Positions 7,758-20,333 are shown, counted from the stretch's first letter. The stretch is DNA of 64,000 bases from Acidimicrobiia bacterium (GCA_965216495.1 OZ244163.1:1194109-1258108); one strand, 5' to 3'. The notes: generated by a model not told the origin, from the letters alone. Made by a program: numbers and translations.

Positions 7758-8582
7758 TCAGTAACGCCAGCGGGCGATGACGGCTCCATTTGAGTCTTGG
7801 AGCAGCGCCATGTCCCCGCCGTTGTTCCAAACCGAAGAGCCTCCCGGATCCCATTTCGGATCATCCGACGAGATTGCAATGGAGTCTCCGGGGTCGAGCT
7901 GGGTTCCGGCGACGAACTCGTAGCGATGCCGCGACGACTCGTCCCTCAGGATCCAGCCGCTCAGGTCAACGGTGGTGTTGTCGCGGTTCGAGATCACAAT
8001 GATTTCCGATCCGAGTTGCTCGTCATCCGGCCCACGAGGATCCACGTTCGACGAGTTCGTATCGATCTCGATTCGCGGTACCGGACCTCCGTTGCAGGCT
8101 TCAGCAGACCACAGCCCGACTCGAGCATTGAAGGCTTCGTTTTCGGCGAGAACGTATACGTTTCCTAAACCCTGGTCTCCGGGTGTCGTTGCTATGGCAA
8201 GTCCTAGTTGGACAAGTTCGAGATTGATGTTGCGTTCCCCTTCGAACACGACGCCGAGAACCCTTCCGAACTGGTCGGTTCCGTGTTCTTCGATTCTCAC
8301 CTTGCGCCCTTTGAGCGTGTCGATGAGGTGGTCGAGGCTCTCTTGGGCCTGGCATTCGCCGCGGTCAGGAGCGTTGATCCCGATTAATCGAACTTCGATG
8401 TCCCCGTCAGGGGTGGCCACTTCGATGGTGTCGCCGTCATCGATCCAGGTGACCGTTGAGTCGTCGGGGCCGGTTGTGGGGTGAGGAAAAGGGAGTGTTG
8501 ATGTCGTACCTTCCCCGATCGGCTGGCACGCGGTCGTCAGAAGCAGCGAGATGGCCGCGATCGTCAGTAATCCTTTGTGCAA
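7758..8582 (-). CDS. secreted lipoprotein: staphylococcal-nuclease (SNase/thermonuclease) domain fused to a C-terminal lamin-tail domain (LTD)
   Basis: The TTG at 8582 gives the signal MHKGLLTIAAISLLLTTAC (lipobox). SNase core is DGDTIEV...VRLIGINAPDRGEC...GRVLGVVF...NLELVQLGLA. LTD is EIIVISNRDNTTVDLSGWILRDESSRHRYEF. The start is inferred; the ORF is open up to 8717. Confidence 0.7.
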   Translation of the reverse strand: MHKGLLTIAAISLLLTTACQPIGEGTTSTLPFPHPTTGPDDSTVTWIDDGDTIEVATPDGDIEVRLIGINAPDRGECQAQESLDHLIDTLKGRKVRIEEHGTDQFGRVLGVVFEGERNINLELVQLGLAIATTPGDQGLGNVYVLAENEAFNARVGLWSAEACNGGPVPRIEIDTNSSNVDPRGPDDEQLGSEIIVISNRDNTTVDLSGWILRDESSRHRYEFVAGTQLDPGDSIAISSDDPKWDPGGSSVWNNGGDMALLQDSNGAVIARWRY

Positions 8583-8611
8583 TTTCGGTCCGGTGAGGAC
8601 CGTGGTTGCAC
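8577..8611. repeat. 35-nt imperfect palindrome/hairpin, copy 1 (gtgcaatttcggtccggtgaggaccgtggttgcac)
   Basis: Arms GTGCAA/TTGCAC and CGGTCC/GGACCG. Overlaps the proposed TTG start (8580-8582) of the nuclease gene. A near-identical copy lies 70 bp away. Confidence 0.8.
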
Positions 8612-8646
8612 AACAGATCCCATGGCCCGGCCCCGATCCATCTGCT

Positions 8647-8681
8647 GTGCAGTTTCGGTCCTGTGAGGACCGTGGTTGCAC
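8647..8681. repeat. 35-nt imperfect palindrome/hairpin, copy 2 (gtgcagtttcggtcctgtgaggaccgtggttgcac)
   Basis: 33 of 35 nt are identical to copy 1. The flanks are also similar (about 49 bp in total, 8571-8619 vs 8641-8689). It sits just after the stop of the upstream MFS gene. Confidence 0.8.
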
Positions 8682-8695
8682 AACCGATCGACTGC

Positions 8696-10033
8696 TCACG
8701 CGTTCTCGAACACCCACTCGTCACGTGAGGCCCGGGCCGCGTCGACGTCTACACGTGACAGCAAGATGAGCCCGATTGCGAAAAACCCCACGACGGACAG
8801 TATGGCGGGTCGCCCGGTCTCTGAGATGTTCGACACCAAAGCGAAGACCAGGGGACCCCAGATGGCGGAGAACTTGGAGAAGACCGAGTAGAACCCGTAG
8901 AACTCCGCCGACGCTTCTTCGGGAATCATCGTTCCGTAGAGGCTTCGGCTCAGGGCCTGCACGCCACCGAGCACAAAACCGACGACCACGGCGAGTCCAT
9001 AAAGGGGAGTGGCTTCACCTTCGGGCAGGAAGAATGCAGCGAAGGCCACGCCGACCCAGATGACCAGGGCTGCCATGATCGCGCCCTTGGTTCCCAGCCG
9101 ATCGGCGAGGGCGCCGAACATGAGCGCTCCGAAGAAGGCGATGAACTGAACGATCAGGAAGGTGATGATGATCTCGGTAGCGCCGAGGTTCAGCGTCTCT
9201 TCGGCGTAGGCCCCGGTCACCGCGATCACGGTCTGAACTGCATCGTTGTAGAACAGGTACGCAAGCACGAACAGCATCAAGTGTTTGAAGCCGACCAGCT
9301 TTTTCGCGGTGTCCACGGTTCGGGCGAATCCGATCCGAACGAGTTCACCCCACCCAAGTTTGGCTTCACCCATTTCGGTCTCGGTTTCATCAGGAAGACG
9401 ACTGAGGGCAAAGAACGTGAAGAGAATCCACCACACGCCGGCGCCGGCGATTCCGATGCGTGCCGCCGTGCTCTCGGAAAGCCCGGTGACACTGTCGTCT
9501 CCGCTGAGGAGGATCAAGACCAGAGCCAGCAGCACGTACAACCCGCCACCGATGTAGCCCATTGCGAACCCCTTCGACGAAACCCGGTCGATCGTCTCGT
9601 CGGTGGCGATCGTCGGAAGGAACCCGTCGTAGAAGACATTGGCCGCCACGAATCCAATCTGGGTCAGTAGAACAACTCCGAGGAAGAGCATCACCGATCC
9701 GTCGGGAACAAATGCCAGGAGGATTGTGGTGATGGCTCCGATCCAGGCGAAGAGTCGGAGGAACCGCTTCTTGGCCGAGGCGTAGTCAGCCACCGCCCCG
9801 AGTACCGGCATAGCCAGGAAGAGGATGAAGGCTCCCATCGAAATCACCAGGGACCAGAGTGTCTGACCCGATAGACCGTTGAAGCCCCCTTCGGGAACGA
9901 TCACTCCTGTGAAGAACGCGGCGACGATGGCTGCGAACGTTGTGATGTAGGCCGAGTTGGCCCAGTCGTACATTGCCCATCCGAAGACGGTTTTCGGGTC
10001 GTTCTTGGTGATCACTAGCGACAAGCTAGACAT
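8696..10033 (-). CDS. MFS transporter, UMF1/Atg22-like family (second paralogue)
   Basis: N-terminal TVFGWAMYDWANSAYITTF signature. Hydrophobic polytopic protein of 445 aa. Confidence 0.75.
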   Translation of the reverse strand: MSSLSLVITKNDPKTVFGWAMYDWANSAYITTFAAIVAAFFTGVIVPEGGFNGLSGQTLWSLVISMGAFILFLAMPVLGAVADYASAKKRFLRLFAWIGAITTILLAFVPDGSVMLFLGVVLLTQIGFVAANVFYDGFLPTIATDETIDRVSSKGFAMGYIGGGLYVLLALVLILLSGDDSVTGLSESTAARIGIAGAGVWWILFTFFALSRLPDETETEMGEAKLGWGELVRIGFARTVDTAKKLVGFKHLMLFVLAYLFYNDAVQTVIAVTGAYAEETLNLGATEIIITFLIVQFIAFFGALMFGALADRLGTKGAIMAALVIWVGVAFAAFFLPEGEATPLYGLAVVVGFVLGGVQALSRSLYGTMIPEEASAEFYGFYSVFSKFSAIWGPLVFALVSNISETGRPAILSVVGFFAIGLILLSRVDVDAARASRDEWVFENA

Positions 10034-10047
10034 ATTCTTCGGAGTCG

Positions 10048-11256
10048 ATGCGCAAAACGCTGGTTCTTGGTGTCGTCCTGGCCGTGGCTTGCACCACGAC
10101 TCCCGATGCTGCGCCCGACGCTTCGACTACCACCTCGTCTACTTCCATTACTACGACGACCTTCCCGCCGACGACCACGACCTCGTCTACTTCCATTACT
10201 ACGACGACCCTGCCGCCGACCACCACGACGCTGGCTGAGCTTTCGGGTCTTCGGTACGAAGAGATCGCTCGGTTCGACTTCCCGATTCACATGGTGCCGC
10301 GCAACGCGTCGCTGAGCCTGCTGGCCACCAAGGACGGCCAGATCTTCGAATACGACGGCGAGACATTCCGCGAGGTTCTGGACATAAACCAAAATGTCCT
10401 CAATCGGGGCGAGCGCGGGCTGCTCGCCATCGCGGTGCACCCCAGAAACGATTCGCGGCTCTTCGTCCATTACACAGCCAACGACGGAGACACCGTGTTG
10501 GAGGAATACCGAATACTTCCGGACGGCACTGTCGACCCGGAGCCGAGCTGGGAGTTGCTGAGAGTCGACCAGCCTGCGGGTAATCACAATGGCGGGATGA
10601 TCCAGTGGGGCAACAGCCAAGTTCTCTATCTGGGACTTGGTGATGGCGGGGGTGCCAACGATCGATTTGGCCACGGTCAGAACACGGGATCGCTCCTGGG
10701 AGGCATCGTCTCGCTGTCTGCCGGGATTGCTATAGACACTCTCGGTCCGCCACCGACAGAGCTTCACCAGTACGGACTGCGCAACCCTTGGCGATTCTGG
10801 ATCGACGGAGATCTCATCTACATCGCCGACGTTGGGCAGAACCGGCACGAAGAGGTTTCGGTTTCCTCGCTCGATTCTGACGTCAACTACGGATGGCCGG
10901 TAACGGAGGGGAGCCATTGCTTCCGCCCATCGTCGGGATGCTCGCTCGAAGGTCTCACACTCCCGGTCGTGGACGTCGCTCACGGCGACGCGGGAACCTG
11001 TTCGATCACGGGAGGTGTCGTCTACCGCGGCAACGCCATCCCGGAACTGAATGGGCACTACTTCTACTCGGACTTCTGCGGCGGCTACCTTCGGAGCTTC
11101 GTCTATCAGGACGGAGTGGCAATCGAACAGACCGATTGGACCGAACAGGTCGGCGTCCCCGGATCGGTAGTCAGCTTCGGAACAGACCACCTTGGCGAGA
11201 TGTACGTCCTGACGACCTCCCGCATCCTGAAGGTGACCCCGGTCCGATCGGGATAG
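10048..11256 (+). CDS. PQQ-dependent soluble sugar (glucose/sorbosone) dehydrogenase-type beta-propeller lipoprotein
   Basis: Signal plus lipobox MRKTLVLGVVLAVAC, then a Thr-rich duplicated linker. Family motifs GERGLLAIAVHP, NHNGGMIQWG, GLRNPWRFW and ADVGQN are present. Confidence 0.8.
   Translation: MRKTLVLGVVLAVACTTTPDAAPDASTTTSSTSITTTTFPPTTTTSSTSITTTTLPPTTTTLAELSGLRYEEIARFDFPIHMVPRNASLSLLATKDGQIFEYDGETFREVLDINQNVLNRGERGLLAIAVHPRNDSRLFVHYTANDGDTVLEEYRILPDGTVDPEPSWELLRVDQPAGNHNGGMIQWGNSQVLYLGLGDGGGANDRFGHGQNTGSLLGGIVSLSAGIAIDTLGPPPTELHQYGLRNPWRFWIDGDLIYIADVGQNRHEEVSVSSLDSDVNYGWPVTEGSHCFRPSSGCSLEGLTLPVVDVAHGDAGTCSITGGVVYRGNAIPELNGHYFYSDFCGGYLRSFVYQDGVAIEQTDWTEQVGVPGSVVSFGTDHLGEMYVLTTSRILKVTPVRSG
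10126..10221 (+). repeat. 2 x 48-bp in-frame tandem repeat encoding TTTSSTSITTTT(F/L)PPT linker
   Basis: cctcgtctacttccattactacgacgacc occurs at 10133-10161 and again at 10181-10209. Confidence 0.85.
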
Positions 11257-11688: not shown

Positions 11689-12125
11689 GCCTCGCCTCCG
11701 ACGACGAGCCAGGTTCCCACGATCACCATTGCGAACCCGACGAGCTTGGTGGTGTCAAGAGAGCGCGCCTCACTGAACACCCCATAGTGATCGAAGATCG
11801 CACCCAGCAGGAGAGTCGCGGCCGTGAACAGTGTGAGACCGGCTCCCAAGCCAAGGCGCGAGACTGTGATTCCCAACGACGCGACGACCACCAACCCCAT
11901 GAGACCGGCCGAGAAGGCCCACCAAGGAATGTCTTTCAGGTCGGCGAACCGCGTTTGCCCAAAGATCACCATGGCAACACCGATGGCCAATCCTCCAAGA
12001 CCGTAGGTGACGAAGGTGCTTGCCAGGGTTCCGACCTTTTCCTCCATGACGCCGAGTGCGCCGGATTGAACGGCACCAGCCAGCCCCCCGACGACACCGA
12101 CGAGGATCACGATGAAAACGCTCAT
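11685..12125 (-). CDS. DMT-superfamily small membrane protein (YdcZ/DUF606-like)
   Basis: 146 aa and strongly hydrophobic throughout (helices not counted), with Gly-rich N-terminus VGGLAGAVQSGALG. Convergent 4-nt overlap with the HIT gene. Confidence 0.55.
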   Translation of the reverse strand: MSVFIVILVGVVGGLAGAVQSGALGVMEEKVGTLASTFVTYGLGGLAIGVAMVIFGQTRFADLKDIPWWAFSAGLMGLVVVASLGITVSRLGLGAGLTLFTAATLLLGAIFDHYGVFSEARSLDTTKLVGFAMVIVGTWLVVGGEA

Positions 12126-12128
12126 GGG

Positions 12129-13244
12129 TCAATCTTGGTGCGTGGGCCGCTCGAATTGGTGGACCGCAGCATCAAGGTATGACATCGCTCGGTCGTATCC
12201 CAGAGGAACGACGTGGCGCGTGTAGTGGACGACGCGCCAGGCCCAAAGGCGAAACGCGGCCTCCTCCCATGCGGGGTCCCCCAGGATGAAACCGTCCATA
12301 AGCGAGGGAAAGATTTGGCGCCAAGTCGCGGCATCCATATCGGGCAGGTCTTCGTGATCCAGGCCCAGTGAACGCAACACCAGCGACTCGGCGGCGTCGG
12401 GTGGGGTGGCGATCTCCTCGAGAGTTGCCGACTCGTCGTAGGCGACTGTGTTCCTGAGGTCCGCGGGGGCGGGGACAAGGGGGTCCTTTTCCAAGCGGCC
12501 GCCGTTAGCTGGGCGAGACCTTGAGCGCAGTGAACCAACGGCGTCGAGGCATTCGAGCAGCATTTGGCGTATGTCGGTGAGCGATCCGTAGAGAGCGTGC
12601 CGCTTCCCATCCGGAGCGTTGTGCTCGAATAGGCCTAAGTCCATAGCGGCTGTGGCGTGGGTGATGAGCGTATCGATTCCCCAATCGGACCGCCTCCGAA
12701 CGAACTCATCCTCGGCAAGCGTTGCGACAGCTTCTCTCGAAAGGAGCAGCTCGCCGCCAAGAGGCTGGTGCAGTTCTGCGAGGATGGTGTGAGGAAAGAG
12801 GCGGGCCAGCCCCGGGCGAGTGATCATCCAGGTGATCATTGCGTCGGTGGCTGCTCGGGGAAATCGGTGGCGTACCACACCGAACCCTCGGTCTGCACCC
12901 GCTTCGGCTCCGTCGATCCAGGTCTCGTCGAAGTTCGTGATGTCGGCGTCGTAGAAGTGGGTTCGATCAAATCCTCGTTCGGCCGATCGGTGGAGAGCGG
13001 TGTTCATCCCGTCCCCCTTACCTGACCGATAGCCTCCCAGCCGTTGTTGCGGAAAGACCTCAATGGGTGTTGCGAACTGCGCCTGGATATCTTTGGCCAC
13101 TCCGAGCACGTCGTTCATCGTGGCGCTCTCGGACGACGCAACGGCCCACACTTCGGTGACGCGGGGATGACGCGCCGCCGTCGAGAGATTCGAGGCGATG
13201 ACGTTCAGATCTTCCTTCTTGAACGGGAAGACGACGAGGCTCAT
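12129..13244 (-). CDS. mgs: mannosylglycerate synthase-like GT-A glycosyltransferase (GT78-type)
   Basis: Blocks MSLVVFPFK, AARHPRV.EV, GKGDGMNTAL, HFYDADIT.F, VRH.FPRA.TDAMITWMITR, QPLGGELL and RRRSDWGIDTL match my recollection of the Rhodothermus marinus MGS sequence. This is from memory, not a search. Confidence 0.6.
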   Translation of the reverse strand: MSLVVFPFKKEDLNVIASNLSTAARHPRVTEVWAVASSESATMNDVLGVAKDIQAQFATPIEVFPQQRLGGYRSGKGDGMNTALHRSAERGFDRTHFYDADITNFDETWIDGAEAGADRGFGVVRHRFPRAATDAMITWMITRPGLARLFPHTILAELHQPLGGELLLSREAVATLAEDEFVRRRSDWGIDTLITHATAAMDLGLFEHNAPDGKRHALYGSLTDIRQMLLECLDAVGSLRSRSRPANGGRLEKDPLVPAPADLRNTVAYDESATLEEIATPPDAAESLVLRSLGLDHEDLPDMDAATWRQIFPSLMDGFILGDPAWEEAAFRLWAWRVVHYTRHVVPLGYDRAMSYLDAAVHQFERPTHQD

Positions 13245-13291
13245 CTCAGCAATCCCGAAAGTGTCATGGTCGTTGTCTACTCTCCGGCTCG

Positions 13292-14959
13292 ATGGGTGAA
13301 CATGTTGGGCGGGTTCTTGGTACCAAGGATTCGACGCCGCTGGAGTTTTGGGTTGGAGTTGCCGACGGGCAGTACCTCCAACTCGATGACGTGGTTGCGC
13401 TCGAGAGGGTGCTTCCTTCGGGGGAACTGATTCGTATGTATGGGACCGTGAATCAGGTGGTCGCCAAGCATGAGGGTGCTCGTTTCGACTCCGACGTGTT
13501 TCTCATTGAAGACGGGATCCTTCCCGCAGAGGTCGCTGAAGCGGCGCAAATCACGGCGACGCGATTTGAACCGGAGGTTTTCGTGCCGCCACGTCCTGGC
13601 CAGGAGGTCCGGGTGGCGGAAGGTGAGGAGCGCGATCGCGCTCTGTTCTTCGATCGGATGGATCGAAAGCTGCCCGTGGGGCTTGCACGAAACGGTGAGC
13701 CACTGTGGGTCAACTTCGAATTCATAAATGGCGAACGGGGAGCTCACGTAAACATCTCCGGCATCTCCGGGGTGGCGACCAAGACGAGCTATGCAACGTT
13801 CTTACTCCACTCGTTATTCACTTCGGGCGTGTTGGGAGCTGCGGCGGTCAATACCAAGGCTCTGATCTTCAATGTGAAAGGTGAGGATCTTCTCCATCTA
13901 GATCGGGTCAACTCCCAACTCGACGAAGACTCGAGACTCAGATACACCACGCTCGGTCTGCCAAGCGCGCCATTCGATTCGGTTGGGTTGTTTGCACCGC
14001 CGCGGCTCGACGATCCGCGGGCGACAGCTGACGTAGCCTCTCGCTCCGACGTGACCTCGTTCTTCTGGTCCATTCACGAGTTCTGCGTCGACGATTTACT
14101 GCCGTTCCTCTTCGCTGACGCTGAGGACGACCGTGCCCAATACACCACTGTTGTCTACAACGTCATGGCCCAGCTGCGACAGGCGACCTCGAACGATGCA
14201 GGCGCAGCGATCATCGAAGGCGAGACCATTCGCACATTCCGAGGGCTGGCCGACCTGATCACGAACCGGGTCCAGTCCGATGAAACCCGATACAACTGGG
14301 CCGGACCTGCGGTTGGAATGGGAACGATCAATGCCTTTGTCCGTCGGTTGCAGGCCTCGGTGCGTCACCTGGCCCGTCTGATTCGGGCTGACGTCTCGAA
14401 TCCGGGCAAACACCGGATTGCGTTGGACGCCCAGGTCACAGTTGTCGACCTCCACAACCTCAACGATCGAGCCAAGCGCTTCGTGGTGGGGGTGACACTG
14501 AAGCGTGCCTTCGAGGAGAAGGAGAGGGCTGGCCAATCTGAGGAGTTGCTGATGGTGGTTCTCGACGAGTTGAACAAGTACGCGCCACGTGAGGGCTCCA
14601 GCCCGATCAAGGAGGTGCTGTTGGATATCGCCGAGCGGGGCCGATCACTAGGTGTTGTGTTGATCGGTGCCCAGCAGACTGCTTCCGAAGTCGAGCGACG
14701 AATCATCGCTAACTCGTCAATCCGGGTCGTGGGGCGTCTCGACACGGCCGAGGCCTCCCGCGAGGAATATGGCTTCCTACCTGGACCCACGCGCCAAAGA
14801 GCGACGATCATCAAGCCCGGCACGATGATTCTGTCCCAGCCCGAGCTGCCCGTTCCGATAGTCGTGGAGTTCCCGTTCCCAGCCTGGGCCACGAGAGCAT
14901 CCGAGGCCGTGGTTCCTATTGACTCATCGATACCCGAGGATGTCTTCGAGGACCTTTGA
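13292..14959 (+). CDS. herA: HerA-like hexameric ATPase (HAS-barrel plus FtsK/HerA-type core) with a deviant Walker A
   Basis: N-terminal small-barrel-like region (VGRVLG...LEFWVGV...YGTVNQV). P-loop position reads GISGVATKTS. Walker B is LLMVVLDELNKYAP, followed by ERGRSLGVVLIGAQQTASEV. Confidence 0.65.
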   Translation: MGEHVGRVLGTKDSTPLEFWVGVADGQYLQLDDVVALERVLPSGELIRMYGTVNQVVAKHEGARFDSDVFLIEDGILPAEVAEAAQITATRFEPEVFVPPRPGQEVRVAEGEERDRALFFDRMDRKLPVGLARNGEPLWVNFEFINGERGAHVNISGISGVATKTSYATFLLHSLFTSGVLGAAAVNTKALIFNVKGEDLLHLDRVNSQLDEDSRLRYTTLGLPSAPFDSVGLFAPPRLDDPRATADVASRSDVTSFFWSIHEFCVDDLLPFLFADAEDDRAQYTTVVYNVMAQLRQATSNDAGAAIIEGETIRTFRGLADLITNRVQSDETRYNWAGPAVGMGTINAFVRRLQASVRHLARLIRADVSNPGKHRIALDAQVTVVDLHNLNDRAKRFVVGVTLKRAFEEKERAGQSEELLMVVLDELNKYAPREGSSPIKEVLLDIAERGRSLGVVLIGAQQTASEVERRIIANSSIRVVGRLDTAEASREEYGFLPGPTRQRATIIKPGTMILSQPELPVPIVVEFPFPAWATRASEAVVPIDSSIPEDVFEDL

Positions 14960-15029
14960 TGCCAAGACAGTAGGAGGCTGCGTCGCACCTTCCGCGAATC
15001 TGTCACAGGCCGAACCTACGATCTGACAC

Positions 15030-16163
15030 GTGAGGTTTCTCCACACGTCCGATTGGCACGTAGGTCGCAAGATCCGCGGTCGCGACCGTTTTGACGAACA
15101 CCGAGCGGTCCTCGCCGAGTTGACCGAAAAGGCAGATGAGCACGGCGTGGACGCCATCTTGGTTGCCGGGGACGTGTTCGACACTGCGGCGCCGACCCCT
15201 GCTGCCGAGGAGATCGTGTGGAACGCCCTCTTGACACTCTCCGACATCGCTCCGGTTCTGGTCGTTGGTGGCAACCATGACAACGCCGCTCGACTCGAGG
15301 CCGTGGGACCACTGTTGGGTCGGGCCGGGGTGACTGTGGTGGGCAAGGCACGAGCGGCCGAACAGGGCGGAGTCGTTGAACTTGGAGAAGCCAAGGTTGG
15401 ACTCCTGCCCTTCATCTCCCAGCGGGGCATTGTCAAGATCGCTGACCTGATGGGTGCCGACCCAGATCAGCATGCCGGTCAGTACGAAGATCGTCTCAAG
15501 GCAATCATCCATCATCTGACTGTTGCCATGGATACCGATTCGGTGAACATCGTGATGAGTCACTTGACGGTTCATGGTGCGAGCTCTGGTGGTGGTGAGC
15601 GTGGAGCCCATATCTTCGGTTACGCGGTCCCAGCAAGTGTCTTCCCGAGCCACTTGAGCTATGTGGCGCTCGGACATCTGCACAGGCAACAGAAGATGCC
15701 CCACGCCTCATCTGTTTGGTATTCCGGATCCCCGATGCAGTTGGACTTCGGTGAAGTTTCTGATCAAAAGGGAGCGCTTTTGGTTGAAGCCGTTCCCGGG
15801 CGGCCGGCTTCTGTGACAGAGCTTCCGCTGATTTCGCCGAAACGCCTGGTGGAGCTGCGCGGCACGCTTGCCCAGGTGGAGGCGGCTGCCCAAGAAGTGG
15901 AGGACGCCTATGTCAAGGTGATTCTCGACGAGAGGGGAAGGGTCGGACTCGCTGACCAGGTTCGCAAGATCGTGCCTAACGCCGTGGATGTTGTGCTGGC
16001 TACGAGCCACACCACTACAGATCGCAAGAGGAAGCGCCGCCAAGGCCTGCAACCGGTCGAAGCCTTTGAGGCCTATTTGACCGAGCGCGACCAGGCCCAC
16101 GACGGTGTGGTGGATCTGTTTCGCGAGTTGTTGGACGAAGCGCTTAGCCCGGTGGACTCATGA
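15030..16163 (+). CDS. sbcD: Mre11/SbcD-type DNA repair exonuclease
   Basis: Phosphoesterase motifs MRFLHTSDWHVG, LVAGDVFD, VVGGNHD and SHLTVHG are present. GTG at 15030 is the first possible in-frame start (TGA at 15024). Confidence 0.85.
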   Translation: MRFLHTSDWHVGRKIRGRDRFDEHRAVLAELTEKADEHGVDAILVAGDVFDTAAPTPAAEEIVWNALLTLSDIAPVLVVGGNHDNAARLEAVGPLLGRAGVTVVGKARAAEQGGVVELGEAKVGLLPFISQRGIVKIADLMGADPDQHAGQYEDRLKAIIHHLTVAMDTDSVNIVMSHLTVHGASSGGGERGAHIFGYAVPASVFPSHLSYVALGHLHRQQKMPHASSVWYSGSPMQLDFGEVSDQKGALLVEAVPGRPASVTELPLISPKRLVELRGTLAQVEAAAQEVEDAYVKVILDERGRVGLADQVRKIVPNAVDVVLATSHTTTDRKRKRRQGLQPVEAFEAYLTERDQAHDGVVDLFRELLDEALSPVDS

Positions 16164-18472
16164 GACCGCTACGGATTGAGTTGTCGGGATTCTCGGCATA
16201 CAAGGCGCCGGTTGTCGTGGACTTCGAAGACGTCGAGTTCTTTGCCCTCACAGGACCTACCGGGTCTGGGAAGTCCAGCCTGGTGGACGCAATGATCTTC
16301 GCCCTCTACGGCAAGATTCCCCGCTTGACGGGCAACTCCATCGCTCCCGCTATCTCGGCGGGCTCGGATGAGGCAAGAGTGGCCTTCGCATTTGAGGTCG
16401 ACGGAGAGCGGTATGAGGTGGCGCGATTTGCCCGCCGTACCGAGGGAGGAGCCGGTGTCAGAGAGGCGAGGCTGGAAGGTCCGGTGACGGCCAACGGCGT
16501 GGGTGAGGTAAACCGCGCTGTCGAAGAGGTTCTGGCACTGGACTACGAAGACTTCATTCGTACGGTTGTTCTTCCCCAGGGTGAGTTCGCCAGATTTCTC
16601 AAAGCCAAGAAGTCAGAGCGTCAAAGTCTGCTCAGGAGCCTGCTCGGATTCGACCTCTATTCGCGAGTGGGTCAACTCGCCAAAACCCGGCGCGCCGTAG
16701 CTGCCGATCGCATTCAGACGGCAACTCGCGACCTCGAAGCCATTCCCCCAATCGATGAATCCGATGTCGAAGCCGGTGTGCGCCGAGTTGAAGCCTTGGC
16801 TGAGATGCACGCCGAGATCTCGACTCAGGAGCAGCAACTTGCCACGCTCCAGGACGAAGCCGAGAAAGCCAAGGAGTCAGCTACCCGCCTGCACTCCAGT
16901 ATCGCGAGACTCGGCGAACTGGCAGCGCCTGAGAACCTCGATCGGCTGGGCGCGCTCACCGAAGCGGCACGGTCAGCTGTCGAGAAGTCCGAGTTGGAGG
17001 TCAAAACCGCCAGGGACGATCTCGAAGCCACGATTGCCAAGCGGGAGAGCCATCCATCGACAGATCGAATCGAATTCTGGGCCGCTGCGTACCGCAATTT
17101 GGCCGAGTTGGACAACAGCTATCCGGACGGTGGGGTTGAGACTGCGCTGAAAGAGGTGACACGCGGGGCAGACGCGGCGACCACAGAGCTGGAGGCGATC
17201 GAATCAGCTTTGGCTGATCTGCGAACTCGTCATCTAGCTCACACCTTGGCCACTGCTCTCGAAGCTGGAGCGGAATGCCCCGTCTGTCGGCAGGAGATCA
17301 CCGAGATTCCGGAACGAGCTGACCTTCCTGAGTTCACTGAGATGGAGGACAAGAAGAAGGCGGCCGAACGGAGAGTTGAGGATCTGGAGCGACAGAGTTC
17401 GTCCATCAGGAGCCATCACATCAAGTTCCGGACGATATTGGAGGGGCTCGATGGAGCTCCGTCAGCCTCCGATCTCGAGGAGTTGCGAGATGTCACTCGA
17501 CAACTCGACGAGCGGGTCGGGGAGCTGAAGGCAGACCTTGCCGCGAAGGTCCGAGCGAACGCAGCTGCCGAGGCAGAACTCGAGAGGCTGGCTGAAGCTC
17601 AGAACCTGCTCGGGCACCAACTGACCGAAGCAGTGCTGCCACTTGCTGCCCTTGAACCTTCGATCTCCTCGAGTGACGATCCGGTGGTTCGGTGGAAAGA
17701 GCTGTTGGAGTGGCGCGATGGCAAGAAGCAGGAGCTTGTGGGCCTGGTCGCCGAGGCCGAGGATGCCAAACTCGCAGCATCTAGTAGTGAGGCCGAAGCC
17801 CGATCTGCGATCGAGGCAACGCTCCGTGCTGAAGGTATCGCCGCCGAGCCTCCATACGCGGATCGAATCGCGACTGCCCGGGAGATGGCTCAAGCCGAGG
17901 TCAAGCGTCTCGAGGAGACAGCCAAGCGTCGCCAGTCCCTCTCGAAGACGCTTCAGGCAGCGACTGAGGAGGAGGCAATGGCGGCGGCGCTGGTCAGCCA
18001 TCTCCGCGTCGACGGATTTGAGCGTTGGCTCATGGTCGACGCGTTGGAACAGCTCGTTGACGGAGCCAACGAATTGCTCGCCGACCTTTCTGGTGGTGGC
18101 TATTCGCTCCAGGTCGATGATGCCGGAAGCTTCTCTGTTGTAGACCATCGAAACGCTGACGAGCTGAGACTCGTCGACACACTCTCTGGAGGCGAGACGT
18201 TCCTAGCCTCGCTGGCCCTGGCCCTCGCCCTTGCCGAGACGTTGGCTTCGAAGGGCGGCTCGGCACTCGATGCCGTAATTCTCGACGAAGGATTTGGGAC
18301 ACTCGATGATGAGACCTTGGACGTTGTGGCATCAGTTCTCGAGGAGCTGTCCGGAGAGGGGCTGATGGTCGGGGTGATAACTCATGTGAAAGAACTGGCC
18401 ATCAGGGCACCGGCGCGGTACGAGGCCACACGACATCCGGGTGGGGTCGATGTGACCAGGATCGACTCATGA
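16160..18472 (+). CDS. sbcC: Rad50/SbcC-type SMC-like ATPase (short, 770 aa)
   Basis: Walker A LTGPTGSGKSS, a long Ala/Glu-rich middle region expected to be coiled coil, a central CPVC zinc hook (17276-17287), signature LSGGETF and Walker B AVILDEGFGTLD. ATGA overlap with sbcD. Confidence 0.85.
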   Translation: MRPLRIELSGFSAYKAPVVVDFEDVEFFALTGPTGSGKSSLVDAMIFALYGKIPRLTGNSIAPAISAGSDEARVAFAFEVDGERYEVARFARRTEGGAGVREARLEGPVTANGVGEVNRAVEEVLALDYEDFIRTVVLPQGEFARFLKAKKSERQSLLRSLLGFDLYSRVGQLAKTRRAVAADRIQTATRDLEAIPPIDESDVEAGVRRVEALAEMHAEISTQEQQLATLQDEAEKAKESATRLHSSIARLGELAAPENLDRLGALTEAARSAVEKSELEVKTARDDLEATIAKRESHPSTDRIEFWAAAYRNLAELDNSYPDGGVETALKEVTRGADAATTELEAIESALADLRTRHLAHTLATALEAGAECPVCRQEITEIPERADLPEFTEMEDKKKAAERRVEDLERQSSSIRSHHIKFRTILEGLDGAPSASDLEELRDVTRQLDERVGELKADLAAKVRANAAAEAELERLAEAQNLLGHQLTEAVLPLAALEPSISSSDDPVVRWKELLEWRDGKKQELVGLVAEAEDAKLAASSSEAEARSAIEATLRAEGIAAEPPYADRIATAREMAQAEVKRLEETAKRRQSLSKTLQAATEEEAMAAALVSHLRVDGFERWLMVDALEQLVDGANELLADLSGGGYSLQVDDAGSFSVVDHRNADELRLVDTLSGGETFLASLALALALAETLASKGGSALDAVILDEGFGTLDDETLDVVASVLEELSGEGLMVGVITHVKELAIRAPARYEATRHPGGVDVTRIDS

Positions 18473-19392
18473 AGTTCACAGTCGAAGCGTGGGACTCGGA
18501 CTATGGGGCGCCTACTGACTCAGAACTACAGGACGCCAGCGAAAACGTTGACGTCAGCATCGAGTTCCGTCCCGAGGAATGGAGGCCAGTCCTTCCCGAA
18601 GTTTCACCGGTGCCGGACATTCTTTTCGTTGACGGTGTTCGTCGCGTGGATGCGACGCTGTGGATCGATCAGCCACCTGATTTCCCTGCGTTCTCTCTGG
18701 CTGCGACCTACGCGGCTGGTGCTGTTCGATGTAACGGAAAGTCGCACGTGGAACAGGCAGTTGTTGAACGGGGGCTGTTCACCTCAGCAGGTGCCATTGA
18801 GATACCCACCTCGGTGGGCACTTACGAGGTCAAGGCCACCAAGGGAACTACGTCGGAAGAGCTTTGGCTCGGGATTCAGCAGCGGATGGCGACTCTCGAG
18901 GCCGAGGTTGCCCATCGCACCGGTGGGGCCGAACTGATAGTTGTGGACGGGCCACTTTCTCATTCTGGTGATGTCGAGAATGCGGTGGGCTATGTAAAAA
19001 CTCAGAAGGTGATGTATCTGCCACTTGAGTTGCGCCAGGTCCTGGCTGGGCTTCCTGCTGGATATCGAACACCCGTCTTCTTGATGACTACTGGTCGCTG
19101 GAGTCGCTTTAGTTGGTATCTGAGACTGGCCAATCACGCCGGTCCAGCCGGTGGCCTGGTGCGATGTGAACTAGATGCCGACATCACGCCGACCGAAGCC
19201 ATCAGCACCGCCAGTCGAGTGTCGGCGACTTTGCCCAGATATGCCTCGTCACGCCATAAGGACCCGCGGGCTCCGCAAAACCTCTACCCGATTGGCGGGT
19301 TGGAGCGCGAACTGCGACGCAGGCTGGGTGACAAGGAGATGGCAGTCAGGGCATTGAGACGAGCCTCGGCAGCGTTGTCAGCTTCTGCGTGA
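18469..19392 (+). CDS. nurA: NurA-like nuclease candidate (assignment mainly from operon position)
   Basis: ATGA-coupled to sbcC. Two hydrophobic-VDG segments (ILFVDGVRRVDA, LIVVDGPLSH) resemble the NurA acidic motifs. No stronger motif was recognised. Confidence 0.45.
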   Translation: MKFTVEAWDSDYGAPTDSELQDASENVDVSIEFRPEEWRPVLPEVSPVPDILFVDGVRRVDATLWIDQPPDFPAFSLAATYAAGAVRCNGKSHVEQAVVERGLFTSAGAIEIPTSVGTYEVKATKGTTSEELWLGIQQRMATLEAEVAHRTGGAELIVVDGPLSHSGDVENAVGYVKTQKVMYLPLELRQVLAGLPAGYRTPVFLMTTGRWSRFSWYLRLANHAGPAGGLVRCELDADITPTEAISTASRVSATLPRYASSRHKDPRAPQNLYPIGGLERELRRRLGDKEMAVRALRRASAALSASA

Positions 19393-19397
19393 AGCCG

Positions 19398-20333
19398 TCA
19401 TCCGTCGGTGGCGATGATCTCTCGCCGCGACGCCATATACGCCCCGACGACCACGGCCACGACTCCACCTATGGCGATCGGAGATATCGATTCGTCGCGG
19501 AAGGTGACTCCAAGAACGAGGGCCACCGCTGGAATCAGGTAAGTGAGAAATGATGCTCGAGGAGCGCCGACCCGACCGACAAGCCGGCTCATCATTATGA
19601 ACGCCAGGCCGGTGCCGAAGACTCCCGTTGCGAGAACTGCCAGCAAGGAAGCTAAGGAGAACGTCGACTGGGTCAACCCGTAGAGGCCGTACGGAGCAAC
19701 GAGCGCGGTGCTGATCATCAGAAACTGGCCAACCAATGGGACGGCTCCATACTTCTGTTGGAGGGGCGCGGCCATATTGAGAGAGATGGCGTATCCGATG
19801 GTCGCAACCAGGACCAGACCGACACCCAGTGCAGCAGTCGGTTCTTGACCGGCACTTGGTCCGGCGATAGCGGCTATTCCAATCCCGCCGAGTATCACAC
19901 CGACCATTTGAACCATGCGTGGCATTGACTTCAGAAGGAAGGCGGCCAGCACCATTGTGAAGACAGGTGTAACGCCGTTGAGCATCCCTGCAATGGCCGA
20001 GTCGATCCACTGCTGAGCGATCGGGAACAATGTCAACGGAACCGCGATCCAAGCAACAGCCAGAAGCAGGACTTTTGGCTTGTCTTCAGGTTCGAACTCT
20101 ACTTGCGCTGAGCCTCGGATCAGCGCCAGAAACAGCGCCCCGGACCCGACGCGAACAAGGGTGACCAGACCCGGGTGGAAGGTATCGAGTCCGATTGCCA
20201 TCAGAAGGAACGACGACCCCCAGATCATGACTAGTGCAAAGAACAGCCCCCAGTCGAGAGCCGTGAAAGCCTGCCGATTGGTGCCAAAGCTGGTCGAGAT
20301 CAGTCGCGTGTTCATCCTCATAAGAAACCCCAA
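19398..20333 (-). CDS. EamA/DMT family transporter
   Basis: 311 aa and hydrophobic along its whole length, with two similar halves typical of EamA repeats (helices not counted). Confidence 0.7.
   Translation of the reverse strand: MGFLMRMNTRLISTSFGTNRQAFTALDWGLFFALVMIWGSSFLLMAIGLDTFHPGLVTLVRVGSGALFLALIRGSAQVEFEPEDKPKVLLLAVAWIAVPLTLFPIAQQWIDSAIAGMLNGVTPVFTMVLAAFLLKSMPRMVQMVGVILGGIGIAAIAGPSAGQEPTAALGVGLVLVATIGYAISLNMAAPLQQKYGAVPLVGQFLMISTALVAPYGLYGLTQSTFSLASLLAVLATGVFGTGLAFIMMSRLVGRVGAPRASFLTYLIPAVALVLGVTFRDESISPIAIGGVVAVVVGAYMASRREIIATDG

Follow-up and report, generated by a model that had tools for sequence, protein, structure and literature searches.

Is a four-gene block that shows the gene order of the archaeal DNA end-resection operon, when it stands in a bacterial genome, an archaeal import or a bacterial system, and does it serve DNA repair or defence? 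We addressed this question for a locus of an Acidimicrobiia bacterium (GCA_965216495.1 OZ244163.1:1194109-1258108). The window analyzed was the whole 64-kb stretch of DNA, in which 44 translated open reading frames (ORFs) were scanned, and all coordinates are positions in this stretch. A preliminary description had reported four co-directional genes, herA, sbcD (mre11), sbcC (rad50) and a nurA-like gene, and ORF calling confirmed them as four consecutive ORFs on the + strand. Their most likely function, judged from protein families, gene neighbourhoods and upstream motifs, is the DNA-damage-induced processing of double-strand break (DSB) ends, a reading that we consider probable. The elements of the locus are as follows, with lengths in amino acids (aa) or nucleotides (nt):

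13262-13283, + strand: PafBC/RecA-NDp-type promoter motif TGTCATGGTCGTTGTCTACTCT, with a -26 GTC and a -10 TACTCT, ending 8 nt before the herA ATG
13292-14959, + strand: herA, 555 aa, ATG start, by homology a bacterial (Deinococcus-type) HerA hexameric double-stranded DNA (dsDNA) translocase/ATPase
14960-15029, + strand: herA-sbcD spacer, 70 nt, carrying the second promoter motif
15001-15022, + strand: PafBC/RecA-NDp-type promoter motif TGTCACAGGCCGAACCTACGAT, ending 7 nt before the sbcD GTG
15030-16163, + strand: sbcD, 377 aa, GTG start, Mre11-family nuclease of the bacterial SbcD type
16160-18472, + strand: sbcC, 770 aa, ATG start, Rad50-family SMC-like ATPase of the bacterial SbcC type with short coiled coils
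18469-19392, + strand: nurA, 307 aa, ATG start, NurA nuclease by profile homology

The sbcD/sbcC and sbcC/nurA junctions each consist of a ctcATGAnn overlap, and inspection of the 70-nt spacer revealed no purine-rich Shine-Dalgarno sequence ahead of the sbcD GTG. The overlaps, the spacer and the missing Shine-Dalgarno sequence had all been noted beforehand and are present in the sequence, as is every protein motif that had been quoted for the four translations.

HerA of the block was aligned over residues 3-538 with the HerA of Deinococcus radiodurans (DrHerA; PDB 7F6D, chain 7f6d_B) at E=9e-144 when searched against the PDB with phmmer, and a profile of 23 divergent homologues (30-55% identity) matched DrHerA at 2e-200 across positions 5-544. 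Against the archaeal Sulfolobus HerA (4D2I) the same profile reached just 7e-7, over the C-terminal ATPase half, and several anti-phage HerAs fell in the same range. The Walker A motif (GISGVATKTS, aa 157-166) is non-canonical in that no G stands ahead of the K, yet it is identical in DrHerA. Walker B reads VVLDELNKYAP (aa 422-432), the second of the previously quoted motifs, ERGRSLGVVLIGAQQTASEV, is present as well, and both K164/T165 of Walker A and D425/E426 of Walker B are invariant across the 23 homologues. The protein groups with the NurA-partnered Deinococcus HerA and not with the conjugative and FtsK-type ATPases (VirB4/TraG/FtsK) that had been named as the competing assignment. No Pfam family was matched by this ORF at E<=0.01, the DUF87/HerA central domain (PF01935) included; the bacterial HerA clade falls outside the Pfam DUF87 model. 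The family assignments proposed in the preliminary description were recovered by profile models for SbcD, SbcC and, marginally, NurA, while the first gene had to be assigned without any Pfam match. By homology to the 7F6D complex, HerA would assemble into a hexameric ring, bind a NurA dimer and translocate dsDNA. A profile search of a large protein database with HerA returned Actinomycetota only, at 54-89% identity, and more distant HerA clades were sampled through 50%-identity representatives and their contigs. Distant HerA homologues (26-29% identity) were also seen in two phage records, KP836355.1 (Marinitoga camini virus 1, a Thermotogota virus) and MT836743.1 (a human-gut phage contig).

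The fourth ORF passes the Pfam NurA model (PF09376) marginally, with 22.9 bits at a cutoff of 21. A single-sequence phmmer search matched it to D. radiodurans NurA (DrNurA, 7f6d_H) at 9.6e-20 and to TM1739 (1zup) at 6e-4, and with a profile of 24 orthologues (40-77% identity) DrNurA was found at 3e-44, over chain residues 48-360, and the Thermotoga protein TM1739 at 1.6e-14. No archaeal NurA chain in the PDB was matched by this profile at E<=1. Residues D55 (in FVDGVRR), E144 and D160 (in VVDGPLS) are invariant in the 24 orthologues, which includes both of the VDG segments noted earlier, and in DrNurA and TM1739 the VDG and DGP motifs stand at the aligned positions of D55 and D160. By analogy, D55, E144 and D160 may be the metal ligands of an RNase-H-like core. 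The C-terminal motif of the protein is HKDPRAPQNLYP. Precomputed PF09376 assignments exist for many members of its sequence cluster that are 76-82% identical to ORF4, and some cluster members bear the NCBI name 'DNA double-strand break repair nuclease NurA'. An AlphaFold2 model of the protein had a mean predicted local distance difference test score of 44 with a shallow alignment of 30 sequences (76-82% identity) and was left unused. The Pfam match and the profile match to DrNurA identify ORF4 as NurA, as had been expected, and not as an unrelated protein.

The closest characterized counterpart is the NurA-HerA pair of D. radiodurans (DR_0836/DR_0837; PDB 7F6D, 7WRW and 7WRX), with which HerA of the block is homologous over its full length, Walker A included, and NurA over nearly its full length, the DrNurA chain having 369 residues versus 307 aa here. 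DrHerA-NurA has been solved as a 6:2 complex in which a HerA hexamer and a NurA dimer make up a translocation-coupled nuclease with end-resection activity in vitro (PMC9960219), and the same architecture would be expected here by analogy. Among bacteria only HerA-NurA of D. radiodurans has been described as studied; its genes form a two-gene nurA-herA operon that lies apart from sbcCD, the mre11/rad50 homologues (PMC8708640). The block differs in that sbcD and sbcC stand between herA and nurA, nurA is coupled to sbcC and PafBC-type promoter motifs are present.

Both proteins encoded by the central genes are of the bacterial type. SbcD scored 188.7 bits on TIGR00619 (cutoff 77.65) versus at most 48 bits on archaeal Mre11 models, matched Pfam Metallophos (59.1) and SbcD_C (28.2; cutoff 24.4) and contains the phosphoesterase motifs SDWH, GDVFD, GNHD and GHLH. 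SbcC exceeded the cutoffs of Pfam AAA_23 (63.2), SMC_N (56.1) and SbcC_Walker_B (41.4), and on TIGR00618 it scored 247 bits (E=3e-73) versus at most 99 bits on archaeal Rad50 models. The TIGR00618 score lies under the full-length cutoff of 478.5 bits and comes from two matched stretches, one at each end, which fits an SbcC that falls short of the 1043-position model by about 280 aa, i.e. has shorter coiled coils. Walker A (GPTGSGKSS), the Q-loop, the signature LSGGETF, Walker B (VILDEGFG) and the H-loop (VITH) were all identified, and the zinc hook CPVC lies at aa 373-376 of 770 (48% of the length; nt 17276-17287), the coiled coil around it being predicted by family and not computed. Homologues are 788 aa (L084), 942 aa (L086), 1006 aa (Sphaerospermopsis) and 1117 aa (Streptomyces) long versus 770 aa here, lengths that suggest markedly shortened coiled-coil arms for the Acidimicrobiia SbcC.

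The archaeal herA-mre11-rad50-nurA operon of Sulfolobus and Pyrococcus comprises the same four families in the same gene order (order according to the listing in PMC4351679); it is co-transcribed and induced by ultraviolet (UV) light, and its products cooperate in 5'-3' end resection (PMC2288612, PMC4351679, PMC8708640). In contrast, the block encodes bacterial-lineage proteins, with a HerA that is missed by Pfam DUF87 and a short SbcC of 770 aa, and it probably forms two transcription units instead of one, with promoters of an actinobacterial type. The archaeal order pointed out in the preliminary description thus holds for the arrangement, which equals the Sulfolobus listing, and not for the origin; judged by their sequence matches, the proteins are of bacterial lineage and not a recent archaeal import.

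To see how far the arrangement is conserved, as the preliminary description had proposed, we surveyed one genome per species, giving 80 loci with HerA 64-87% identical. These belong to Acidimicrobiia, Nitriliruptoria and other Actinomycetota, plus single metagenome-assembled genomes (MAGs) labelled Dehalococcoidia and Eisenbacteria, and the proteins closest to the block products came from Acidimicrobiia MAGs. The block is also carried by the complete Acidimicrobiia chromosomes OZ244166.1 and OZ244213.1. The genes herA, sbcD, sbcC and nurA follow one another on one strand in 57 of the 80 loci, while 18 contigs were too short to judge. Among the other five, three carry large inserts that push nurA past the fetched DNA, L040 has herA without partners within 8 kb, and L058 (Ca. 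Spongiisociaceae chromosome OZ253564.1, 8001-15524) has herA on the + strand followed by nurA, sbcC and sbcD on the - strand. This inversion of the whole sbcD-sbcC-nurA unit fits two separable transcription units. Individual flanking genes recur beside the block in 18-38 of the 80 loci, including upstream MFS, a 391-aa ORF, HIT, YdcZ and a mannosylglycerate-synthase-like glycosyltransferase, and downstream EamA, a pyridoxamine-oxidase-like gene (PyrOx), GpsA and YchF. Such recurring neighbours indicate a fixed chromosomal locus and not a mobile island.

Cargo of 1.5-6 kb was observed between herA and sbcD in L001 (9660-11081), L009 (9706-11973), L010 (9734-11995), L044 (9671-15851) and L053 (1622-2647). 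The genes found in these positions encode a pyridine-nucleotide-disulphide oxidoreductase, a GAF-histidine kinase, a DUF222-HNH endonuclease and a fatty-acid desaturase accompanied by three Pfam-less ORFs. Insertions seem to be tolerated in the spacer that separates the two promoters.

The order herA-sbcD-sbcC-nurA was also present on a linear plasmid of Streptomyces sp. BB1-1-1 (L088, NZ_CP134205.1, 1-7319), where the genes are annotated as ATP-binding protein, SbcD, SMC family ATPase and hypothetical protein, as well as in Nonomuraea gerenzanensis and in L086, a lineage with 73% guanine plus cytosine (GC) whose HerA is just 45% identical. An alternative order, nurA-herA-sbcD-sbcC, was found in L084 and on the conjugative plasmid (plasmid1) of the cyanobacterium Sphaerospermopsis NIES-73, and Oceanithermus profundus has a nurA-hepA-sbcD-sbcC cluster in which Blesa et al. 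(2017, PMC5448004) saw an archaeal-like architecture for DSB repair. In these three cases bacterial HerA/NurA is likewise linked to bacterial SbcD/SbcC, in an order that differs from the one shared by the window and most Actinomycetota. That the genes are linked in two different orders, and across at least three phyla, argues for functional coupling. The linkage of bacterial HerA-NurA to SbcDC as such is already known; new are its conservation in the archaeal order, the two-unit architecture and the PafBC-type leaderless promoter motifs. In the literature searched, whose coverage did not extend to older bacterial gene-neighbourhood papers, the herA-sbcD-sbcC-nurA order is undescribed for Actinomycetota.

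Solitary herA genes with 38-40% identity were seen in low-GC (27-29%) lineages (L081-L083 and L087), where their neighbours are housekeeping genes (miaA, holB and fusA, for example) and no NurA, SbcD or SbcC was found within 7-8 kb. Members of the HerA clade thus do not always have their partners nearby.

The upstream regions connect the block with the response to DNA damage. In the 64 kb, the pattern TGTC-N12-TANNNT occurs at exactly two sites on both strands, and both lie on the + strand directly before herA and sbcD. Since 1.8 sites are expected by chance, the argument rests on placement and conservation and not on the count. The PafBC consensus derived in vivo by chromatin immunoprecipitation, tGTCgg(N10)tA(N3)T, consists of a -26 element and a canonical -10 with no -35 (PMC8635444). 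The mycobacterial PafBC (RecA-NDp) regulon has the same promoter layout as the block, with tGTC at about -26, 12 nt and TAnnnT (PMC8635444), and the spacing of 12 nt from GTC to TA in the window equals that of the consensus exactly. The RecA-NDp motif reaches beyond mycobacteria into other Actinobacteria (PMC8223512). A scan of 12900-19800 for sigma-70 -35/-10 promoters yielded none, nor was a convincing terminator found there.

The motif GTC-N12-TANNNT was then counted in the 80 related loci, where 2.23 Mb of strand sequence contained 160 occurrences in total. It was located at most 61 nt upstream of herA in 54 of 76 loci (0.22 expected) and at most 61 nt upstream of sbcD in 43 of 72 (0.21 expected), so that 97 of the 160 occurrences are accounted for by these two positions, and it was found upstream of sbcC or nurA in none of the 80 loci. 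Alignment of the sbcD upstream regions revealed cgaaTcTGTC-N12-TACgaTCg to be conserved in 44 distinct sequences, with the start codon following 7-8 nt on, and herA is preceded by the same architecture (cTGTCac...gtcTACnCT, 8 nt, ATG); across the related loci the first RTG lies mostly 7-8 nt past the -10. The N12 positions are free to vary in these alignments, whereas GTC, the preceding T and TAC..T are fixed, which points to selection on the motif, although the related loci are not independent. Presence of the sbcD motif also follows the distance between the genes: it was found in 43 of the 46 loci with a herA-sbcD gap of at least 30 nt and in none of the 26 with a gap below 30 nt. According to this pattern, the promoter of herA drives the whole block as one operon in some lineages, and in others, this one included, there are two units, each with its own promoter. 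In the relatives with inserts of 1.5-6 kb between herA and sbcD, the motif is retained right before sbcD.

A distance of 7-8 nt from the end of the -10 hexamer to an ATG or GTG is characteristic of leaderless actinobacterial mRNAs. A leaderless transcriptome (Cortes et al. 2013) is cited in the study of the PafBC consensus (PMC8635444). From the motif positions we infer that the herA mRNA is leaderless or near-leaderless and the sbcD-sbcC-nurA mRNA leaderless, a geometry that would explain both the 70-nt spacer and the missing Shine-Dalgarno sequences at herA and sbcD.

Extra copies of GTC-N12-TAnnnT (TTCTTGTCAnAnCC...TGTACGTT) were noticed in L053 (1478-1525), L005 (9670-9700), L001 (about 1820-1900) and L004 (about 11757-11830), near DUF222-HNH inserts. 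None of these copies starts an ORF directly; the one in L053 lies upstream of a DUF222-HNH gene, from which it is separated by 22 nt of leader that include a Shine-Dalgarno-like sequence. In mycobacteria, the REP13E12 (DUF222-HNH) family is likewise induced by DNA damage, which would lend independent support to the function of the motif here. A different arrangement was seen in L086 (2900-2962), where a canonical TATAAT is followed by an imperfect palindrome, GAGCACATGTTC, and then by a normal Shine-Dalgarno sequence. The palindrome resembles the GAAC-N4-GTTC LexA (Cheo) box, and this single instance suggests control by the SOS response rather than by PafBC in that lineage.

If the block serves damage-induced end processing, a PafBC orthologue would activate both promoters upon DNA damage, giving rise to two transcription units, one of herA alone and one of sbcD-sbcC-nurA, the latter translationally coupled through the ATGA overlaps. 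SbcD-SbcC (Mre11-Rad50) would recognise DNA ends and open or clean blocked or hairpin ends, and HerA6 would then pump duplex DNA into NurA2, resulting in processive, translocation-coupled resection such as that carried out by DrNurA-HerA in vitro (PMC9960219). The coupling of nurA to sbcC, together with the linkage in two gene orders, suggests that SbcDC and HerA-NurA act together, and in archaea Mre11 physically binds HerA (PMC2288612). On these grounds we infer cooperation of SbcDC with HerA-NurA, induction by a PafBC orthologue and a role in recombinational repair in vivo.

Several points weigh against this assignment. When nurA and herA were both knocked out in D. radiodurans, resistance to high-dose UV and mitomycin C rose about 10-fold (PMC9960219), a phenotype which implies that the in vivo role is not simply pro-repair and may be modulatory or in competition with RecFOR. 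Cooperation of SbcCD with HerA-NurA in bacteria was explicitly left unresolved in earlier work (PMC4663267). Regarding regulation, no PafB/PafC (WYL) gene is among the 44 scanned ORFs, which cover 64 kb only; that PafBC is present in the genome and functions in Acidimicrobiia is assumed because RecA-NDp is distributed phylum-wide (PMC8223512); and the Streptomyces and Nonomuraea copies have no motif within 200 nt upstream of herA. The literature searched contained no link of PafBC to herA, nurA or sbcDC. Moreover, the related loci behind the motif and synteny counts are not statistically independent, and the tolerance of unrelated inserts of 1.5-6 kb indicates that herA is only loosely tied to the other three genes.

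The alternative that survives best is that SbcCD and HerA-NurA are two independent systems, which share a neighbourhood and a regulon, act on different substrates and do not cooperate. Deinococcus and Thermus hold nurA-herA apart from sbcCD (PMC8708640, PMC5448004), the motifs before herA and before sbcD-sbcC-nurA are separate, and the inserts between herA and sbcD, the inverted unit of L058 and the herA of L040 without nearby partners all agree with such independence. We nevertheless regard it as rather unlikely, as nurA, the obligate partner of herA, stays with sbcC (through the ATGA overlap here and by adjacency in 57 loci) and hence would be co-expressed with SbcDC, and as two gene orders and at least three phyla show the linkage and archaeal Mre11 binds HerA.

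A defence role for the block is unlikely, and the specific proposal that a HerA ATPase and nucleases destroy invading linear DNA as an anti-phage or anti-plasmid system, comparable to Sir2-HerA or DUF4297-HerA, receives little credence from us. HerA-family ATPases scaffold several defence systems (PMC11472057, PMC11514289, PMC11291478), a second role for archaeal HerA-NurA in degrading foreign DNA was put forward as a speculation by Blackwood et al. (PMC3326311), and PADLOC matched the C-terminal ATPase of HerA to mad8 (40 bits) and to HerA 'Type III coevolved' (32 bits) and SbcC to LmuB (101 bits). These matches are, however, partial and reflect generic P-loop/SMC likeness, those of HerA being at most 40 bits and confined to residues 364-527, and NurA had none; on NCBIfam HerA_antiphage_2 the score was 16.6 bits versus a cutoff of 850. 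The block and the anti-phage systems both pair a hexameric ATPase of the HerA family with an effector enzyme, whereas sequence similarity is weak and partial, and partner enzymes and genomic context differ. The 44 scanned window ORFs are metabolic, transport or repair genes, among which there was no Sir2, DUF4297 or other effector, no integrase, transposase or defence gene, and no WYL regulator or RecBCD/AdnAB. The neighbours that recur in 18-38 of 80 loci and the 64-89% identity of HerA across these loci are unlike fast-turnover defence islands, and the promoter motifs fit a DNA-damage regulon. Close HerA relatives are nearly absent among 50,697 phage records and rare among 72,556 plasmid records, although some copies are plasmid-borne. 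The sole defence-like neighbourhood seen for the block is that of the Streptomyces plasmid, where it divergently adjoins an ImmA/IrrE-family metalloprotease gene, followed by TIGR02680/TIGR02678/DUF2397 genes. We take these last genes to be a Wadjet-type anti-plasmid system. With the PafBC-type motifs, the fixed housekeeping locus and no convincing match to a defence model, the choice between repair and defence, which had been left open in the preliminary description, leans clearly to repair.

Recent transfer of an archaeal herA-mre11-rad50-nurA operon, suggested by the Sulfolobus-like gene order (PMC4351679) and by the description of Thermus herA as 'of archaeal origin' (PMC5448004), is scarcely credible and was rejected because SbcD (188.7 versus at most 48 bits) and SbcC (247 versus at most 99 bits) score higher on bacterial than on archaeal models, and it is further contradicted by the half-length HerA profile match to 4D2I, which is no better than those to anti-phage HerAs, by the lack of any archaeal NurA structure at E<=1, by the uniform GC and by the conserved locus.

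With damage-induced end processing as the preferred function, the locus provides comparative evidence for a functional link between SbcDC and HerA-NurA, in the form of tight linkage in dozens of related genomes, while the studied bacterial HerA-NurA pairs (Deinococcus and Thermus) are unlinked to SbcCD and have puzzling knockout phenotypes. It also yields a concrete regulatory prediction, namely two PafBC-type leaderless DNA-damage promoters, and if this were borne out, herA, sbcDC and nurA would join the PafBC regulon outside mycobacteria. The repair hypothesis is testable in cultured actinomycetes that bear the block, e.g. Streptomyces and Nonomuraea. According to textbooks, bacterial end resection is performed by RecBCD, AddAB or AdnAB, and HerA-NurA is archaeal. 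A bolder possibility, offered tentatively since it is rather unlikely to hold, is that a PafBC-induced HerA-SbcDC-NurA machine is the principal means of long-range DSB end resection in Acidimicrobiia and related Actinomycetota, replacing or dominating RecBCD, AddAB and AdnAB. If true, an entire bacterial class would resect ends the 'archaeal' way, with SbcDC and HerA-NurA as one physically cooperating complex.

GC is flat at about 0.60 along the whole window, scans of the window gave zero tRNAs and zero Rfam matches, and the flanks of the block consist of metabolic and transport genes. The 391-aa ORF upstream (10015-11190, - strand) has no Pfam match and overlaps almost entirely with a 402-aa ORF on the opposite strand (10048-11256, + strand). 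A tblastn match to the 391-aa ORF, with 28-41% identity, was obtained in 38 related loci, at the equivalent place upstream of the block, and the - strand ORF is therefore favoured as the real gene. Further upstream, at 7758-8717 on the - strand, lies a 319-aa ORF with a staphylococcal-nuclease domain and a C-terminal lamin-tail domain, whose product may be a secreted or surface nuclease.

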